Assembly (NCBI RefSeq): GCF_044324875.1
Contig: NZ_CP172185.1
Strand: one strand, 5' to 3'
DNA from: Escherichia coli
Lineage (GTDB): Bacteria; Pseudomonadota; Gammaproteobacteria; Enterobacterales; Enterobacteriaceae
DNA length: 64,000 bases
Made by a program: the position numbers and the translations under genes. Of the stretch, positions 1,320 through 62,357 are shown piece by piece. Position 1 is the stretch's first letter, and each line of letters opens with the position of its first letter. Under the pieces are notes generated by a model that worked only from the letters and a program-made list of their open reading frames with translations, was not told where the DNA came from and ran no database searches.

Positions 1320-4300
1320 TTATCCTTTAAAGCAACGGCGGATCACCACAAAGAACACTGGCACGAAGAAGATTGCCAGCAACGTTGCAGAAACCATCCC
1401 GCCCATTACCCCGATACCCACTGCGTTCTGCGCGCCACTGCCGGCACCGTTACTGATAGCTAGCGGTAATACGCCGAGAATAAAGGCGAGAGAGGTCATC
1501 AGGATAGGACGCAGACGCATACGTACTGCCATTAGTGTCGCTTCAACAACACCTTTACCCTCTTTCTCCATGAGATCTTTAGCGAACTCAACAATCAATA
1601 TAGCGTTTTTAGCCGACAAGCCAATTGTCGTTAGCAAGCCCACCATAAAGTAGACGTCATTTTTTTGATTAAAGAGTGTCGCCGCCAGTAGCACGCCGAC
1701 AATCCCTAACGGCACGACCAACATAACCGAGACAGGAATTGACCAGCTTTCATAGAGTGCAGCAAGGCACAGGAAAACAACCACAAAGGAAATTGCTACC
1801 AGAGCGGGAGCCTGGTTTCCCGATAAGCGTTCCTGATATGACATACCCGTCCAGTCATAACCAATGCCAGCTGGTAATTGTGATGCAAGGTTTTCCATCA
1901 ACGCCATGGCATCGCCGGAACTGGTTCCTGGCGCGGCTTCCCCCTGAATCTCCATTGACGGCAGACCGTTGTAGCGCTCCAGTCGCGGAGAGCCATACAC
2001 CCAATGTGCAGTGGTAAAGGCCGAGAATGGTACCATTTCGCCGTTGGCGCTGCGGACATAAAGTTTATGGACATCTTCTGGCAGCATACGGAATTTGGCA
2101 TCCGCCTGAACATACACCTTTTTCACGCGACCACGGTCAATGAAGTCGTTAACGTAAGTCCCACCCAACGCCGTTGAAATGGTCTGATTGATGTCAGAAA
2201 GTGAAACACCTAATGCCTGCGCCTTTTCCTGGTCAACTTCCAGTTTAAACTGCGCGGTGTCTTCCAGACCATTAGGACGCACGCTGACTAAGCTGGCAGG
2301 ATGTTGCGCCGCCATACAAAGCAACTGGTTACGGGCCTGGGTTAGGGCATCGTGACCCAGCCCAGCCTGATCAATTAACTCAAAGTCGAAACCCGTTGCC
2401 GTGCCCAGTTCAACAATGGCTGGCATATTGAATGGAATGACAAAACCGTCGCGGATCTTGCCCAATTCCATTTTGGCACGATGGATTACTGCTTCCGCAC
2501 TGTTTTCGTCACCACTACGCTCTTCCCACGGTTTCAGACTGACGAAGGCCATACCGGCGTTTTGTGCCTGGCCGCTGAAGCTAAAGCCGTTAACCGTAAA
2601 GACACTTTCAACGTTCGCTTTTTCGTTCTTCAGATAGTAATCCGTCACTTGATCCAACACTTTTTGCGTCCGCTCTTGCGTCGCGCCAGCGGGTAACTGA
2701 ATCATGGTCAGAAAGACACCCTGATCCTCTTCAGGTAAGAAGGAAGACGGAAGGCGTAAAAACAACACCACCATTCCTGCAACAATCAGCGCATAGATCA
2801 GTAAATATCGTCCTGTGGAACCGAGGATTTTGCCGACGCTGTTGGTGTAGTGGTTAACGCTATGATCGAAGGTGGTATTAAACCAGCCGAAGAAACCGCC
2901 CTTATTTTCGTGATGCTCAGCAGAGACGGGTTTGAGCAGTGTTGCACATAACGCTGGGGTAAGAATCAATGCCACCAGAACAGAAAGCGCCATTGCCGAA
3001 ACGATGGTGATAGAGAACTGGCGGTAAATTGCCCCAGTAGAACCGCCGAAGAATGCCATTGGAATAAATACCGCTGACAGCACCATCGCGATACCCACCA
3101 GTGCGCCCTGGATTTGCGACATTGATTTTTCCGTCGCTTCTTTTGGCGGGAGCTTATCCTCCATCATCACGCGCTCGACGTTCTCCACCACCACTATCGC
3201 ATCATCGACGAGCAGCCCGATGGCAAGCACCATCCCGAACATCGTTAGTGTATTGATGGAGTAACCAAAAGCGGCGAGGATGGCAAACGTCCCTAACAAC
3301 ACTACGGGTACCGCAATGGTGGGGATCAGCGTTGCTCGCATATTCTGCAAGAACAGATACATCACCAGGAACACCAGCATAATGGCTTCGAACAGCGTTT
3401 TTACCACTTCGTGAATAGAAAGCTGGACGAATGGCGTGGTGTCATAAGGGTAGAGAACCTTCATTCCCTGTGGGAAGAATGGCTGTAATTCCGCCAGTTT
3501 TGCCTTAATGGCTTTCGCGGTATCGAGAGCATTCGCGCCGGTTGCCAGCTTAATACCCAGGCCCGCCGCCGGTTTTCCGTTGATGCGAGCGATAACGTTA
3601 TAGTTTTCACCGCCAAGTTCAACCCGTGCGACATCTTTCAGGCGTACCACCGAGCCGTCACTGTTTACGCGCAGGGTCACTTTGCCGAATTCTTCCGGAT
3701 TTTTTAACCGCGTTTGAGCAATAATCGAGGCATTCAACTGTTGCCCTGGTAACGCTGGCGTTCCGCCCAACTGTCCGGCAGCGATCTGGTCGTTCTGTAC
3801 CCTTAACTGGTTAATCACATCAACCGGCGTCAATTTATATTTGTTTAGCAGATCGGCGTCCAACCAGATACGCATCGCATACTGTGCGCCGAAAAGTTGT
3901 ACGTCACCGACGCCATTCAGACGGCTAAGCGTATCTTTAACGTTAGAGGCCACATAGTCCGAGATATCGTCCTGTGTGGTGCCTGGGTTATCAGAGACAA
4001 AGCCCGCCACCATCAAATAGCTGCTACTGGACTTTTCAACACTGATCCCCTGCTGCTGTACCTCCTGCGGCAGCAACGGCGTGGCGAGCTGGAGTTTGTT
4101 CTGCACCTGCACTTGCGCGATATCTGGATCGGTCCCAGACTGGAAGGTAAGGGTAATTGTCACGCTACCGGCGGAATCGCTGGTGGAGGACATATACATC
4201 AGGTTATCGATACCGTTCATATTCTGTTCGATAACCTGCGTCACCGTATCCTGCACGGTCTGCGCATCAGCGCCCGGATAGTTTGCTGAAACAGAAACCG

Positions 4301-28646: not shown

Positions 28647-28690
28647 AACGGTCCCCTCGCCCCTCTGGGGTTAGGGTGAGGGGAACCCGT
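28647..28690. repeat. G/C-rich imperfect palindrome (REP-like hairpin) between convergent tldD and aaeR
   Basis: acggtcccctcgcccctctggggttagggtgaggggaacccgt; CCCCTC / GAGGGG arms; a related copy occurs after nanA (47323-47357). Confidence 0.5.
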
Positions 28691-37066: not shown

Positions 37067-38434
37067 TTAACGCATCAGCAGATAGATGCTTTCATTGCCG
37101 CGTACAATTTGCAGGGCGATGATGGCCGGTTTTGCCGCCAGCACTTTACGCATTTCAGCAATCGAGTTCACCCGATCGCGGTTGACGCCAATGATCACAT
37201 CGTCTTTTTGCAAGCCTGCCTGAGCAGCTGGGCTTCCTTTGACAACCTCATCGATCTTAATACCTTTGCCGCCATCTTTTAGCTGACCATCGCTCAACGT
37301 TGCACCTTCAAGCGCTGGCGTGATCATTTCAGCGCTGGCCGACGAAGAGGTGCTGGTATCGAGCGTCACTTCTACTTCCAGTGGTTTGCCGTTACGCAGC
37401 AGGCCAAGCTTCACTTTCGTGCCCGGCTCGGTGGTTGCGATACGAGAGCGCAACTCAGCAAAGCTATTCAGCGGTTTGCCGTTGAGGCTGGTAATAATAT
37501 CGCCCGCTTTGATGCCCGCTTTTGCCGAGCCAGAACCTGGCAACACTTCGCTGACAAACGCGCCACGCTGCACGTCAAGGTTGAAGGCTTTGGCGATATC
37601 GGCACTCATCTCTGTGCCTTTGATGCCTAACAGACCGCGTTTGATTTCACCAAAGTCGATAAGCTGCTGCGCCAGTGTTCGCGCCATATTACTGGGGATG
37701 GCAAATCCAATCCCGACGCTCCCGCCACCAGGCGCAAGGATTGCCGTGTTGATGCCAATTAACTCACCGTTAAGATTTAACAGTGCACCGCCGGAGTTAC
37801 CGCGGTTAATGGAAGCATCTGTCTGGATAAAGTTTTCCAGACCTTCAAGATTCAACCCACTGCGGCCTAATGCTGACACAATGCCAGAGGTGGCGGTTTG
37901 CCCAAGGCCAAATGGGTTACCGACCGCCACGGCAAAATCACCGACGCGCAATTTATCGGAGTCGGCAATAGCGATTTGCGTTAATTTGCTCGGGTTTTGA
38001 ATTTGCAACAGGGCGATATCGCTCTGGTCATCGCTACCAATCAGTTTTGCATCAAACTCGCGCCCATCATTGAGCTGGATACTGATTTTCTGTGCCTGAT
38101 TAATCACATGGTTGTTGGTAAGCACATAGCCTTTACTGGCGTTGATGATGACACCGGAGCCTAAACCTTCGAAGGGTTGTGCAGGTTGATCCGGTAAATC
38201 ATCACCAAAAAACTTTTTGAATTCTTCCGGGATTTTCTGTCCCTGACTGGCCGTTCCTTCCACCCGTACGCTCACCACTGCCGGAAGCACTTTTTCCAGC
38301 ATTGGGGCCAGACTGGGGAGAGGGGCCTGATCGGCAACCTGGCCTGGAATCGACGCAACGGCCTGAAATGACGCCGAGAGAGTTAACCCGACACTTAACG
38401 CTAATGCACTCAACAGCTGGGTTTGTTTTTTCAT
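37067..38434 (-). CDS. degQ: Periplasmic serine endoprotease DegQ
   Basis: ORF track 37067..38476; start set at MKKQTQLLSALALSVGLTLSASFQAVA (signal peptide; 455 aa); GNSGGAL catalytic motif, two PDZ domains. Confidence 0.95.
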   Translation of the reverse strand: MKKQTQLLSALALSVGLTLSASFQAVASIPGQVADQAPLPSLAPMLEKVLPAVVSVRVEGTASQGQKIPEEFKKFFGDDLPDQPAQPFEGLGSGVIINASKGYVLTNNHVINQAQKISIQLNDGREFDAKLIGSDDQSDIALLQIQNPSKLTQIAIADSDKLRVGDFAVAVGNPFGLGQTATSGIVSALGRSGLNLEGLENFIQTDASINRGNSGGALLNLNGELIGINTAILAPGGGSVGIGFAIPSNMARTLAQQLIDFGEIKRGLLGIKGTEMSADIAKAFNLDVQRGAFVSEVLPGSGSAKAGIKAGDIITSLNGKPLNSFAELRSRIATTEPGTKVKLGLLRNGKPLEVEVTLDTSTSSSASAEMITPALEGATLSDGQLKDGGKGIKIDEVVKGSPAAQAGLQKDDVIIGVNRDRVNSIAEMRKVLAAKPAIIALQIVRGNESIYLLMR

Positions 38435-45510: not shown

Positions 45511-46302
45511 ATGGGCCTTATGAACGCATTTGATTCGCAAACCGAAGATTCTTCACCTGCAATTGGCCGCAACTTACGCAGCCGCCCGCTGGCGCGTAAA
45601 AAACTCTCCGAAATGGTGGAAGAAGAGCTGGAACAGATGATCCGCCGTCGTGAATTTGGCGAAGGTGAACAATTACCGTCTGAACGCGAGCTGATGGCGT
45701 TCTTTAACGTCGGGCGTCCTTCGGTGCGTGAAGCGCTGGCAGCGTTAAAACGCAAAGGTCTGGTGCAAATAAACAACGGCGAACGCGCTCGCGTCTCGCG
45801 TCCTTCTGCGGACACCATCATCGGCGAGCTTTCCGGTATGGCGAAAGATTTCCTTTCTCATCCTGGCGGGATTGCCCATTTCGAACAATTACGTCTGTTC
45901 TTTGAATCCAGCCTAGTGCGCTATGCGGCTGAACACGCCACCGATGAGCAAATCGATTTGCTGGCAAAAGCACTGGAAATCAACAGTCAGTCGCTGGATA
46001 ACAACGCGGCATTCATTCGTTCAGACGTTGATTTCCACCGCGTGCTGGCGGAGATCCCCGGTAACCCAATCTTCATGGCGATCCACGTTGCCCTGCTCGA
46101 CTGGCTGATCGCCGCACGTCCAACCGTGGCTGATCAGGCTCTGCACGAGCATAACAACGTTAGCTATCAACAGCATATTGCGATCGTTGATGCGATCCGC
46201 CGCCACGATCCCGATGAAGCCGATCGTGCGTTGCAATCGCATCTCAACAGCGTCTCTGCTACCTGGCACGCCTTCGGTCAGACCACCAACAAAAAGAAAT
46301 AA
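45511..46302 (+). CDS. nanR: GntR/FadR-family repressor of sialic acid catabolism NanR
   Basis: ORF track 45511..46302 (263 aa) [76 protein letters not shown]... Confidence 0.96.
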
Positions 46303-46365
46303 TGCCACTTTAGTGAAGCAGATCGCATTATAAGCTTTCTGTATGGGGTGTTGCTTAATTGATCT

Positions 46366-46388
46366 GGTATAACAGGTATAAAGGTATA
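46366..46388 (+). promoter_or_regulatory. NanR operator: three direct GGTATA repeats in nanA promoter
   Basis: ggtataacaggtataaaggtata (GGTATA at 46366-71, 46375-80, 46383-88), about 36 bp upstream of nanA ATG; matches the known NanR-binding repeat. Confidence 0.85.
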
Positions 46389-46423
46389 TCGTTTATCAGA
46401 CAAGCATCACTTCAGAGGTATTT

Positions 46424-47317
46424 ATGGCAACGAATTTACGTGGCGTAATGGCCGCACTCCTGACTCCTTTTGATCAACAACAAGCACTGGATAAAGCGAG
46501 TCTGCGTCGCCTGGTTCAGTTCAATATTAAGCAGGGCATCGACGGTTTATACGTGGGTGGTTCTACCGGCGAAGCCTTTGTACAAAGCCTTTCCGAGCGT
46601 GAACAGGTACTGGAAATCGTCGCCGAAGAGGCGAAAGGCAAGATTAAACTCATCGCCCACGTCGGTTGCGTCAGCACTGCTGAAAGCCAACAACTTGCGG
46701 CATCGGCTAAACGTTATGGCTTCGATGCCGTCTCCGCCGTCACGCCGTTCTACTATCCTTTCAGCTTTGAAGAACACTGCGATCACTATCGGGCAATTAT
46801 TGATTCGGCGGATGGTTTGCCGATGGTGGTGTACAACATTCCTGCCCTGAGCGGGGTAAAACTAACCCTGGATCAGATCAACACCCTGGTTACGCTGCCT
46901 GGTGTCGGCGTGCTGAAACAAACCTCTGGCGATCTCTATCAGATGGAGCAGATCCGTCGTGAACATCCGGATCTGGTGCTCTATAACGGTTACGACGAAA
47001 TTTTCGCCTCTGGTCTTCTGGCGGGCGCTGATGGTGGTATCGGTAGTACCTACAACATCATGGGCTGGCGTTATCAGGGTATTGTGAAGGCTCTGAAAGA
47101 AGGCGATATCCAGACCGCGCAGAAGCTGCAAACCGAATGTAATAAAGTCATTGATTTACTGATCAAAACGGGCGTATTCCGCGGCCTGAAAACGGTCCTG
47201 CATTATATGGATGTGGTGTCTGTGCCGCTGTGCCGCAAACCGTTTGGTCCGGTAGATGAAAAATATCTGCCAGAACTGAAGGCGCTGGCCCAGCAGTTGA
47301 TGCAAGAGCGCGGGTGA
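46424..47317 (+). CDS. nanA: N-acetylneuraminate lyase
   Basis: ORF track 46424..47317 (297 aa) [52 protein letters not shown]... Confidence 0.97.
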
Positions 47318-47322
47318 GTTGT

Positions 47323-47357
47323 TTCCCCTCGCTCGCCCCTACCGGGTGAGGGGAAAT
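47323..47357. repeat. G/C-rich imperfect palindrome downstream of nanA (same family as 28647-28690)
   Basis: tttcccctcgctcgcccctaccgggtgaggggaaa; shares cccctcgc...cccct...gggtgagggg with the tldD-aaeR element; possible terminator/attenuator between nanA and nanT. Confidence 0.5.
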
Positions 47358-47425
47358 AAACGCATCTGTACCCTACAATTTTCATACCAAAGCGTGTGGG
47401 CATCGCCCACCGCGGGAGACTCACA

Positions 47426-48916
47426 ATGAGTACTACAACCCAGAATATCCCGTGGTATCGCCATCTCAACCGCGCACAATGGCGGGCATTTTCCGCTGCC
47501 TGGTTGGGATATCTGCTTGACGGTTTTGATTTCGTTTTAATCGCCCTGGTACTCACCGAAGTACAAGGTGAATTCGGGCTGACGACGGTACAGGCAGCAA
47601 GCCTGATCTCCGCAGCCTTTATCTCTCGCTGGTTCGGTGGCCTGATGCTCGGCGCTATGGGTGACCGCTACGGGCGTCGGCTGGCAATGGTCACCAGTAT
47701 CGTTCTCTTCTCGGTCGGGACGCTGGCCTGCGGTTTTGCGCCAGGCTACATCACCATGTTTATCGCGCGTCTGGTCATCGGCATGGAGATGGCGGGTGAA
47801 TACGGTTCCAGCGCTACCTATGTCATTGAAAGCTGGCCAAAACATCTGCGTAACAAAGCCAGTGGTTTTCTGATTTCAGGCTTCTCTGTGGGGGCCGTGG
47901 TTGCCGCTCAGGTCTATAGCCTGGTGGTTCCGGTCTGGGGCTGGCGTGCGCTGTTCTTTATCGGCATTTTGCCAATCATCTTTGCTCTCTGGCTGCGTAA
48001 AAACATCCCGGAAGCGGAAGACTGGAAAGAGAAACATGCAGGCAAAGCACCGGTACGCACAATGGTGGACATTCTCTACCGTGGTGAACATCGCATCGCC
48101 AATATCGTGATGACGCTGGCGGCAGCTACTGCGCTGTGGTTCTGCTTCGCCGGTAACCTGCAAAATGCCGCAATCGTCGCTGTACTCGGGCTGTTATGCG
48201 CCGCAATCTTTATCAGCTTTATGGTACAGAGTACGGGCAAACGCTGGCCAACGGGCGTAATGCTGATGGTGGTCGTGTTGTTTGCTTTCCTCTATTCATG
48301 GCCGATTCAGGCACTGCTGCCAACGTATCTTAAAACTGAACTTGCTTATAACCCGCATACTGTCGCCAATGTGCTGTTCTTTAGTGGCTTTGGTGCGGCG
48401 GTGGGGTGCTGCGTCGGTGGCTTCCTCGGTGACTGGCTGGGAACCCGCAAAGCGTACGTTTGCAGTCTGCTGGCCTCACAGCTGCTGATTATTCCGGTAT
48501 TTGCGATTGGTGGCGCAAACGTCTGGGTGCTCGGTCTGTTACTGTTCTTCCAGCAAATGCTTGGTCAGGGCATCTCCGGGATCTTACCGAAACTGATTGG
48601 CGGTTATTTTGATACCGACCAGCGTGCAGCGGGCCTGGGCTTTACCTACAACGTTGGCGCATTGGGCGGCGCACTGGCCCCAATCCTCGGCGCGTTGATC
48701 GCTCAACGTCTGGATCTGGGGACGGCACTGGGCTCGCTCTCGTTCAGTTTGACGTTTGTGGTGATCCTGCTGATTGGTCTGGATATGCCTTCTCGCGTTC
48801 AGCGTTGGCTGCGCCCGGAAGCGTTGCGTACTCATGACGCTATCGACGGCAAACCATTTAGCGGTGCCGTGCCGTTTGGCAGCGCCAAAAACGATTTAGT
48901 CAAAACCAAAAGTTAA
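47426..48916 (+). CDS. nanT: Sialic acid:H+ symporter NanT (MFS)
   Basis: ORF track 47396..48916; start set at [39 protein letters not shown] (496 aa). Confidence 0.95.
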
Positions 48917-48963
48917 TCCTGTTGCCCGGTCTCTGTACCGGGCCTTTCGCTAAGGGAAGATGT

Positions 48964-49649
48964 ATGTCGTTACTTGCACAACTGGATCAAAAAATCGCTG
49001 CTAACGGTGGCCTGATTGTCTCCTGCCAGCCGGTCCCTGACAGCCCGCTCGATAAACCCGAAATCGTCGCCGCCATGGCATTAGCTGCAGAGCAGGCGGG
49101 TGCGGTCGCCATTCGCATTGAAGGTGTGGCAAATCTGCAAGCCACGCGTGCGGTGGTGAGCGTGCCGATTATCGGGATTGTAAAACGCGATCTGGAGGAT
49201 TCTCCGGTACGCATCACGGCCTATATTGAAGATGTTGATGCGCTGGCGCAGGTGGGCGCGGACATTATCGCGATTGACGGCACCGACCGACCGCGTCCGG
49301 TGCCTGTTGAAACGCTACTGGCACGTATCCACCATCACGGTTTACTGGCGATGACCGACTGCTCAACGCCGGAAGACGGTCTGGCATGCCAAAAGCTGGG
49401 AGCCGAAATTATTGGCACCACGCTTTCTGGCTATACCACACCTGAAACGCCAGAAGAGCCGGATCTGGCGCTGGTGAAAACGTTGAGTGACGCCGGATGT
49501 CGGGTGATTGCCGAAGGGCGTTACAACTCGCCTGCTCAGGCGGCAGATGCGATGCGCCACGGCGCGTGGGCGGTGACGGTCGGTTCTGCTATCACACGTC
49601 TTGAACACATTTGCCAGTGGTACAACACAGCGATGAAAAAGACGGTGCT

Positions 49650-62245: not shown

Positions 62246-62357
62246 CCCCGGCTAGACCGGGGTGCGCGAATACTGCGCCAACACCAGGGAAATCTTGGCT
62301 GCGCCGTAAATTATTATGATGAGTTACAAGGGCACAGCACTGTTTTTCAGGCCGCAC
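62237..62357 (-). ncRNA. arcZ: ArcZ (SraH/RyhA) small regulatory RNA
   Basis: Reverse complement of 62237-62357 reads GTGCGGCCTGAAAAACAGTGCTGTGCCCTTGTAACTCATCATAATAATTTACGGCGCAGCCAAGATTTCCCTGGTGTTGGCGCAGTATTCGCGCACCCCGGTCTAGCCGGGGTCATTTTTT, which matches the ArcZ sequence as I recall it, including its terminator; 3' end overlaps the arcB stop codon. Confidence 0.88.

Follow-up and report, generated by a model that had tools for sequence, protein, structure and literature searches.

A BoxC-derived RNA hairpin in the nanA-nanT spacer of Escherichia coli

The spacer between nanA and nanT of Escherichia coli gives rise to a real, BoxC-derived hairpin in the sense transcript (hairpin 1), which is fairly ordinary. 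The underlying element is most likely a decayed BoxC copy; judging from the arrangement of its blocks, the C-rich block and one G-rich block were kept and the third was lost. As matters stand, a conspicuous sequence is explained chiefly as a decayed known repeat, and attention shifts to a second hairpin (hairpin 2) at the nanT ribosome-binding site, where a published RNA 3' end and a Rho-dependent step map. The BoxC family, its type of decay and, from REPs, intercistronic hairpins that shape operon expression are already known. New are the identification of this copy as a probable BoxC remnant at a site common to full copies of other genera, the apparent filling of the same slot by three unrelated repeat types, and the attribution to hairpin 2, the conserved neighbour, of the 3' end and the Rho signal found in published data.

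Anatomy, fold and family of the element

The DNA analysed is a stretch of 64,000 nucleotides of the E. coli chromosome (the window), and sequence positions are window coordinates. The element reads TTTCCCCTCGCTCG-CCCCTAC-CGGGTGAGGGGAAA (47322-47356), and its inverted repeat has the arms 47319-47335 and 47343-47359. Gene coordinates and motif confirm the position in the 108-nt gap between nanA and nanT that had been given in an earlier, sequence-only reading of the window. The features of the locus are compiled in Table 1. In K-12 the element is identical, as is the whole spacer. A 251-nt probe spanning the site matched 5409 of 5426 complete E. coli genomes, with nanA and nanT as the annotated genes, and the element was found in 5408 of the 5426. 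One copy of the nanA-nanT junction is plasmid-borne, and 17-18 complete E. coli genomes are without the junction.

Table 1. Coordinates of the features of the nanA-nanT junction and of the related BoxC copy
Feature	Position	Strand	Remarks
nanA	46424-47317	+	gene call
nanA stop codon TGA	47315-47317	+	hairpin stem begins 5 nt downstream (4 bases intervene)
nanA-nanT gap	47318-47425		108 nt
5' (C-rich) arm TTTCCCCTCGCTCG	47322-47335	+	like BoxC block 1 (CCCTCGCCC) plus 3 extra bases
Loop CCCCTAC	47336-47342	+	from folding
3' (G-rich) arm CGGGTGAGGGGAAA	47343-47356	+	corresponds to BoxC loop 2 + block 3 (CCG-GGGTGAGGGG, type B) less one G
Extended hairpin with flanking A/U pairs	47319-47361	+	from RNA folding
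Upstream CGGGTGAG copy	47311-47318	+	takes in the nanA stop codon
Linker between hairpins	47357-47391	+	unstructured, C-rich, G-poor
Hairpin 2, GCG-U-GUGGGC-AUC-GCCCAC-CGC	47392-47413	+	-14.2 kcal/mol; directly 5' of nanT Shine-Dalgarno
Published steady-state RNA 3' terminus	47411-47421	+	peak 47418 = K-12 3372582
nanT Shine-Dalgarno GGGAGA	47414-47419	+	
nanT start codon ATG	47426-47428	+	
C>G region at nanT start	47420-47480	+	C/G ratio ~2; candidate Rho loading (rut) site
tldD-aaeR BoxC copy	28653-28683	+	K-12 TMECO #14 orthologue

Hairpin 1 comprises 14 bp, including two G.U pairs, and folds with -22.8 to -26.8 kcal/mol. For the sense RNA of a 45-nt stretch a value of -26.8 kcal/mol was obtained (z-score -5.9), none of 200 shuffled sequences was as stable, and the pair probabilities were approximately 1.0 when the whole spacer was folded. 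The sequence-only reading had suggested that the element could form an intra-operon hairpin and had named the folding energy as a check; these values bear it out. The antisense RNA of the same stretch reached only -17.6 kcal/mol (z-score -2.0). The sense RNA owes its much higher stability to the two G.U pairs among the 14. Single-stranded DNA of the element folds weakly (-12.2 kcal/mol for the plus strand and -9.6 kcal/mol for the minus strand).

The octamer CGGGTGAG occurs at 47311-47318 and again at 47343-47350, so the repetition of the nanA stop-codon context within the element, which had been noticed from the letters alone, is genuine. The upstream copy can alternatively pair with the C-rich arm, at about -13.5 kcal/mol. 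In the whole window the octamer is not over-represented (4 found versus 1.55 expected), and its first copy rests on an Escherichia-specific codon choice for the conserved ...ERG* end of NanA. Duplication of a target site, or a scar left by a deletion, was weighed as the origin of the direct repeat, a possibility neither favoured nor contradicted by the first copy, which codes for this conserved end.

Like an intrinsic terminator, hairpin 1 is GC-rich and situated downstream of a gene. Unlike one, its stem is followed by the tail AAAUAAACGC, which contains no U-run, and the operon continues. Because the U-tract is missing, hairpin 1 is not an intrinsic terminator, and this candidate was ruled out by the tail and by the lack of a terminator call: a scan of the gap for promoters and terminators, the latter on both strands, yielded no site. 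A search of positions 46000-49000 against Rfam at E<=10 found nothing relevant. A G-quadruplex was rejected by inspection, as there are just three G-runs including one in the nanA stop context.

The original BoxC consensus is a 56-bp imperfect palindrome. To our knowledge, BoxC elements have been without an accepted function since the 1990s. The BoxC/PIT repeats were reportedly treated earlier by Bachellier et al. in the 1990s and by Hoyne et al. in 2000. BoxC is the same as PIT and TMECO, which has the consensus CCCTCNCCC-N3-6-GGGNGAGGG-N3-GGGNGAGGG and is represented by 23 copies in K-12 (Holder et al. 2015, PMC4666352). When the nanA-nanT element is aligned with type-B copies, one arm corresponds to block 1 and the other to loop 2 plus block 3; the middle block is missing. 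In common with the family are the block sequences (CCCTCGC.. and GGGTGAGGGG, with the type-B CCG spacer), the intergenic location and a site that is shared with full copies in relatives. In contrast, only two of the three blocks are present, the C-block has three extra bases, and there is one G fewer ahead of the last block. Measured against the three-block architecture, the element is therefore no TMECO: a single GGGNGAGGG block is found at 47344-47352, whereas the consensus needs two. The pattern of the first two TMECO blocks has no match in the window, and the element is absent from the 23 K-12 copies in Table 1 of PMC4666352. It does share with TMECO/PIT the intergenic, multi-copy character (the nanA-nanT gap, the related copy at 28653 and the 23 K-12 copies of PMC4666352), and it is homologous by position to BoxC: full copies with shared flanks occur in Pseudocitrobacter and in Enterobacter sp. 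kpr-6, and a copy with a shortened third block in Kluyvera. Because two of three blocks are present, an intrastrand triplex is impossible. Two derivations would fit the sequence equally well, namely a single sense copy from which block 2 was lost, or an inverted pair whose outer arms persist.

The sequence-only reading had further placed the element in the same family as one at 28.6 kb, and it was right to do so, both being of BoxC/TMECO type. The second element (28653-28683) lies between the convergent genes tldD and aaeR and aligns base for base with K-12 TMECO #14, save two differences: loop 1 shows a T/C exchange, and 6 nt of the middle block are deleted in this strain. As a consequence of the deletion, this copy no longer fits the triplex consensus. 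In the 64 kb, CCCCTC...GGGTGAGGGG matches at 47325-47353 and 28653-28683 only (shuffled sequences give an expectation of 0), and GGGTGAGGG is confined to the same two loci of the window (0.29 expected). The sequence GGGAGAGGG at 38316 has no partner blocks nearby. A BLAST search of 5,426 E. coli genomes with the 49-nt element returned essentially the nanA-nanT locus alone; this query is too short and too diverged for counting copies of the BoxC family.

REP/BIME sequences within operons, for example in malE-malF, offer a further comparison. They likewise form a stable hairpin without a U-tract a few nucleotides past the stop codon of the upstream cistron, and REP-type sequences occupy the same spacer in Salmonella, Citrobacter, Enterobacter and Lelliottia. 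The nanA-nanT element differs in that its sequence is unrelated to REP, with no GCCGGATG-type motif, and the likeness is one of fold and position. The REP consensus (a palindrome of GCCGGATG... and ...CATCCGGC) is absent from every Escherichia spacer, and a loose version of the motif is present in 46 of 79 spacers overall. Literature searches yielded no earlier description of the nanA-nanT stem-loop.

Orthologous spacers and conservation of the two hairpins

A scan for NanA with one genome per species led to 80 loci, 79 of which gave a nanA-nanT spacer. All seven Escherichia loci, including E. coli, E. albertii and E. whittamii, contain the same two-block hairpin. Two complete three-block BoxC copies, inverted relative to each other, come immediately after the nanA stop codon in Pseudocitrobacter faecalis and Enterobacter sp. 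kpr-6. The spacer of P. vendiensis contains five BoxC copies, of which three to four are repeated in tandem with a period of 73 nt, and those of Kluyvera intermedia and K. cryocrescens contain a single copy whose third block is shortened. The flanks common to E. coli and the BoxC-bearing spacers are tgagtt on the left and aaacgcatc and ttcataccaaagcg on the right. In total, 36 BoxC blocks were found in 8.8 kb of nanA-nanT spacers versus 3 in 452 kb of flanking sequence, which corresponds to an approximately 580-fold enrichment per kb. Given BoxC copies and common flanks at orthologous sites, the Escherichia element is therefore most plausibly what is left of a BoxC already resident at this site. 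The P. vendiensis spacer has 403 nt (3458-3742 of locus L009), its 73-nt units consist of BoxC plus a 37-nt linker with 94% matches, and the mosaic resembles a BIME.

By content, the 79 spacers are divided into those with BoxC (11), those with REP-like sequences according to the loose motif (46), and others (22). The REP-type palindromes are those of Salmonella, Citrobacter, Enterobacter and Lelliottia; the other 22 loci have different hairpins or nothing, as in the 32-nt spacer of Trabulsiella. A structure of -8 kcal/mol or better was predicted in 76 of 79 distinct spacers from approximately 25 genera. Its median start is 7 nt past the nanA stop codon, in 61 of the 76 structured spacers the first structure begins at most 15 nt past it, and the median z-score of the spacers against shuffled sequences is -2.6. 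One locus (L053), titled Chryseobacterium sp. 18061, has an enterobacterial nanA-nanT region that is nearly identical to that of Citrobacter sp. 18056 (L051) from the same study; this record is probably mislabelled or contaminated.

Among eight Escherichia sequences, all 112 of 112 pair cells of hairpin 1 are paired. Four stem positions vary; all changes are transitions in the 5' arm by which G.U pairs turn into Watson-Crick pairs or vice versa, and the 3' arm is invariant. This pattern would be expected from selection on the sense-strand RNA, for which it is a weak indication. On a coding strand rich in C, mutations from C to T are the most frequent. Furthermore, one G.U pair is already present in the BoxC consensus (CCCTCGCCC versus GGGTGAGGG), so that part of the strand asymmetry is inherited and not selected. 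Double compensatory changes do not occur in the eight sequences, and the stem is no more conserved than the spacer, with 4 of 28 stem positions varying compared to about 11 of 80 elsewhere. Of the 5408 E. coli genomes, 4419 share an identical sequence over the 49 nt. The variants sampled in this species (one T more in the T-run, G>T at 47321 and A>T at 47356) affect the stem base or the flank only, and none is informative for the core stem.

The conservation of hairpin 2 is of a different kind. Among 21 distinct sequences from approximately 10 genera, the six inner pairs of this hairpin are kept practically without exception. The full helix has nine pairs; in four of these, which all belong to the inner six, both sides are changed (GC/AU/GU, UA/CG, GC/AU and CG/UA/GC). 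The covariation score is 0.366 versus 0.224 in shuffled alignments (reached by 0 of 500), and it drops to 0.03-0.13 with slid partners. An Rfam family was not found for hairpin 2.

Transcript data across the junction

In published data for K-12, a Rho termination region on the minus strand peaks at 3372577 (Adams et al. 2021, PMC7815308, Supplementary file 2), with a Rho score of 2.10 and p = 6e-5 at the junction. As the nanT ATG is at K-12 3372574 and the spacer is identical, the peak corresponds to window position 47423. The reads upstream and downstream were 164 and 58 without bicyclomycin and 205 and 152 with bicyclomycin (PMC7815308). The coverage step from nanA to nanT, which the sequence-only reading had proposed to look for in RNA-seq data, is hence present in this data set; it is 2.8-fold and partly relieved by bicyclomycin. 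Because it is bicyclomycin-sensitive, the step is at least partly due to Rho. A protective stem-loop would be expected to show this dependence, which is found at the junction, and with the 800-nt windows of Adams et al. the signal is assignable to neither hairpin individually.

The 3' terminus of nanA has been mapped to K-12 3372582, with a range of 3372579-3372589 (TRS re-analysis, PMC10687069, Supplementary Data 2). This corresponds to window position 47418 (47411-47421), which is 5 nt past hairpin 2 and 62 nt downstream of the BoxC hairpin. Among the termini listed in PMC10687069 it is the sole mapped steady-state 3' terminus in the gap. None of those listed falls into K-12 3372600-3372699, the interval to be expected for an end that the BoxC hairpin protects, and none lies at window positions 47357-47370. 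The curated Term-seq list of Adams et al. (PMC7815308) contains no end in the gap, and the nanA-nanT locus is not among the entries of the TERMITe supplements. The 3'-end and coverage data are from LB cultures, in which the nan operon is repressed. Among the termini listed for these cultures, the BoxC hairpin thus lacks the 3' end immediately downstream that is characteristic of a protective stem-loop.

Rho-dependent transcripts can carry a stable stem-loop without a U-tract, with a rut site just downstream (Dar and Sorek, PMC6061677). The junction resembles this architecture in having a stem-loop without following U's, a C-rich region downstream and bicyclomycin-sensitive read-through. It differs in that the mapped 3' end lies behind hairpin 2 and not behind the BoxC hairpin, which would provide a second protection at most. 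In the first 60 nt of nanT, C is twice as frequent as G, and by base composition this stretch fits a candidate Rho loading site. Hairpin 2 may be the real determinant of the nanA/nanT step.

A comparable arrangement was observed at the next junction. The nanT-nanE gap contains the hairpin GCCCGGU/ACCGGGC (48924-48943), which is followed by CUUUCGCU, and the published terminus at K-12 3371052 corresponds to window position 48948, again 5 nt past the hairpin. The nan operon seems to be punctuated by hairpin-protected ends.

Possible roles of hairpin 1

If the BoxC hairpin acts at all, it may do so as a REP-like inner exonuclease barrier that protects nanA. This is the reading we favour; it is a tentative one, and we put it somewhat below an even chance. 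Hairpin 1 would be transcribed within the nanATEK-nanQ mRNA and would form a stem of 14-17 bp starting 5 nt after the nanA stop codon. Lacking a U-tract, it would not terminate transcription, and the difference between nanA and nanT would arise mainly downstream of it. There, a fraction of the transcripts would be ended by Rho where nanT begins and would then be trimmed by 3'-to-5' exonucleases to hairpin 2 (47392-47413), the site of the mapped 3' end. Hairpin 1 would be a passive but stronger inner barrier that shields the nanA cistron once hairpin 2 is breached. An exonuclease arriving from downstream meets hairpin 2 first, which would account for the lack of an end at the BoxC hairpin; on the other hand, this lack among the LB termini listed speaks against the inner barrier.

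It is nearly as likely that hairpin 1 is a neutral remnant. A BoxC would then have landed in a tolerant spacer, would fold because BoxC is palindromic and would have no effect on nan, its near-invariance in E. coli reflecting shallow divergence. Repeats accumulate in tolerant intergenic spacers anyway, which counts against a protective role. The variation of the stem, which equals that of the rest of the spacer and includes no double compensatory change, agrees with neutrality, and so does the free turnover of the spacer among genera, which ranges from 0 to 5 BoxC copies and REPs to nothing in the 32-nt spacer of Trabulsiella. BoxC loci are known to be unstable, and partial deletions that leave hairpins were described by Holder et al. 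(PMC4666352). In the earlier tests of PIT/BoxC, as far as they are summarised in PMC4666352, neither terminator or promoter activity nor an effect in vivo was found, and no 3' end lies at the element among the termini listed. However, all four stem substitutions in Escherichia keep the pairing of the sense RNA, and they are on the arm where transitions give G.U pairs; the chance of this is 0.01-0.2 depending on polarity, according to our own rough estimate. Moreover, nearly every genus keeps a stable structure within approximately 15 nt of the nanA stop codon.

The sequence-only reading had suggested that the hairpin might set the expression of nanA versus nanTEK, which it could do either as an attenuator or as a stabiliser of the nanA 3' end. 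Both a stable hairpin and the 2.8-fold coverage step (164 versus 58 reads) exist, and REP hairpins act in this way in operons such as malEFG, according to what PMC12306157 reports of Newbury et al. 1987. This part of the proposal stands, but the data do not favour hairpin 1 as the cause: the mapped terminus at 47418 is located behind hairpin 2, none is listed at 47357-47370, U-tract and terminator prediction are lacking, and the step is bicyclomycin-sensitive. We consider it unlikely that the BoxC hairpin itself determines the ratio. A roadblock close to the stop codon has an equally low probability. A ribosome terminating at nanA would have to melt the stem, with stalling, mRNA cleavage, tmRNA tagging and less NanA as the result. 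Such effects are attributed to REPs less than 16 nt from a stop codon in the account that PMC12306157 gives of Liang, Rudd and Deutscher 2015, and with the stop codon ending at 47317 and the stem starting at 47322, the element is within this distance, as is the first structure (at most 15 nt from the nanA stop) in 61 of 76 structured spacers. Yet the rule comes from REPs and not from BoxC, REPs are near stop codons genome-wide, so that proximity alone is a weak argument, and less NanA is the opposite of the observed excess of nanA transcript.

The proposal for TMECO of an element that operates at the level of DNA, by an intrastrand triplex or other non-B DNA driving local rearrangement, is highly improbable for the nanA-nanT copy. 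The locus is indeed highly rearranged between genera, and the copy at 28653 carries the strain-specific 6-nt deletion. But a triplex needs three blocks where two are present, by which this variant is largely refuted; in addition, the single-stranded DNA folds with only -12.2 (+) and -9.6 (-) kcal/mol, the element is almost invariant in E. coli, and Holder et al. found no stable triplex in vivo (PMC4666352). A broader and rather doubtful idea would give BoxC elements a function as RNA hairpin modules that can be exchanged for REPs, with selection for some hairpin within approximately 15 nt of the nanA stop codon. Different lineages would then have filled the slot with BoxC, REP or unrelated palindromes, and the two-block remnant of Escherichia would be the minimal functional form. 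Its pairing would be kept by G.U-preserving changes, and it would tune the output of NanA or the lifetime of nanA mRNA relative to nanTEK.

If hairpin 1 does have an effect, a function would be assigned to a BoxC-derived sequence for the first time, and unrelated repeat families would be substitutable as intercistronic RNA hairpins. The nanA:nanT ratio matters in sialic-acid engineering, where the nan operon is used.

Some further observations concern the surroundings of the element. The sequence CGCGGGTGA at the nanA stop codon (47309-47317) resembles CGCGGGAGA at the nanT Shine-Dalgarno sequence (47411-47419), and UUUCCC at the base of hairpin 1 (47322-47327) is complementary to GGGAGA of nanT. 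In principle, the nanT ribosome-binding site could be covered by hairpin 1 once the latter is open, although the complementarity is perhaps due to chance in GC-rich sequence. At the other end of nanA, Adams et al. mapped a strong ORF-internal Term-seq 3' end 45 nt into the gene, at window position 46469 (K-12 3373531), which suggests that transcripts are terminated early or processed right where the operon begins. Elsewhere in the window, the ArcZ sRNA gene (62250-62357, minus strand) is the sole match to Rfam at the gathering score, with 120.8 bits.
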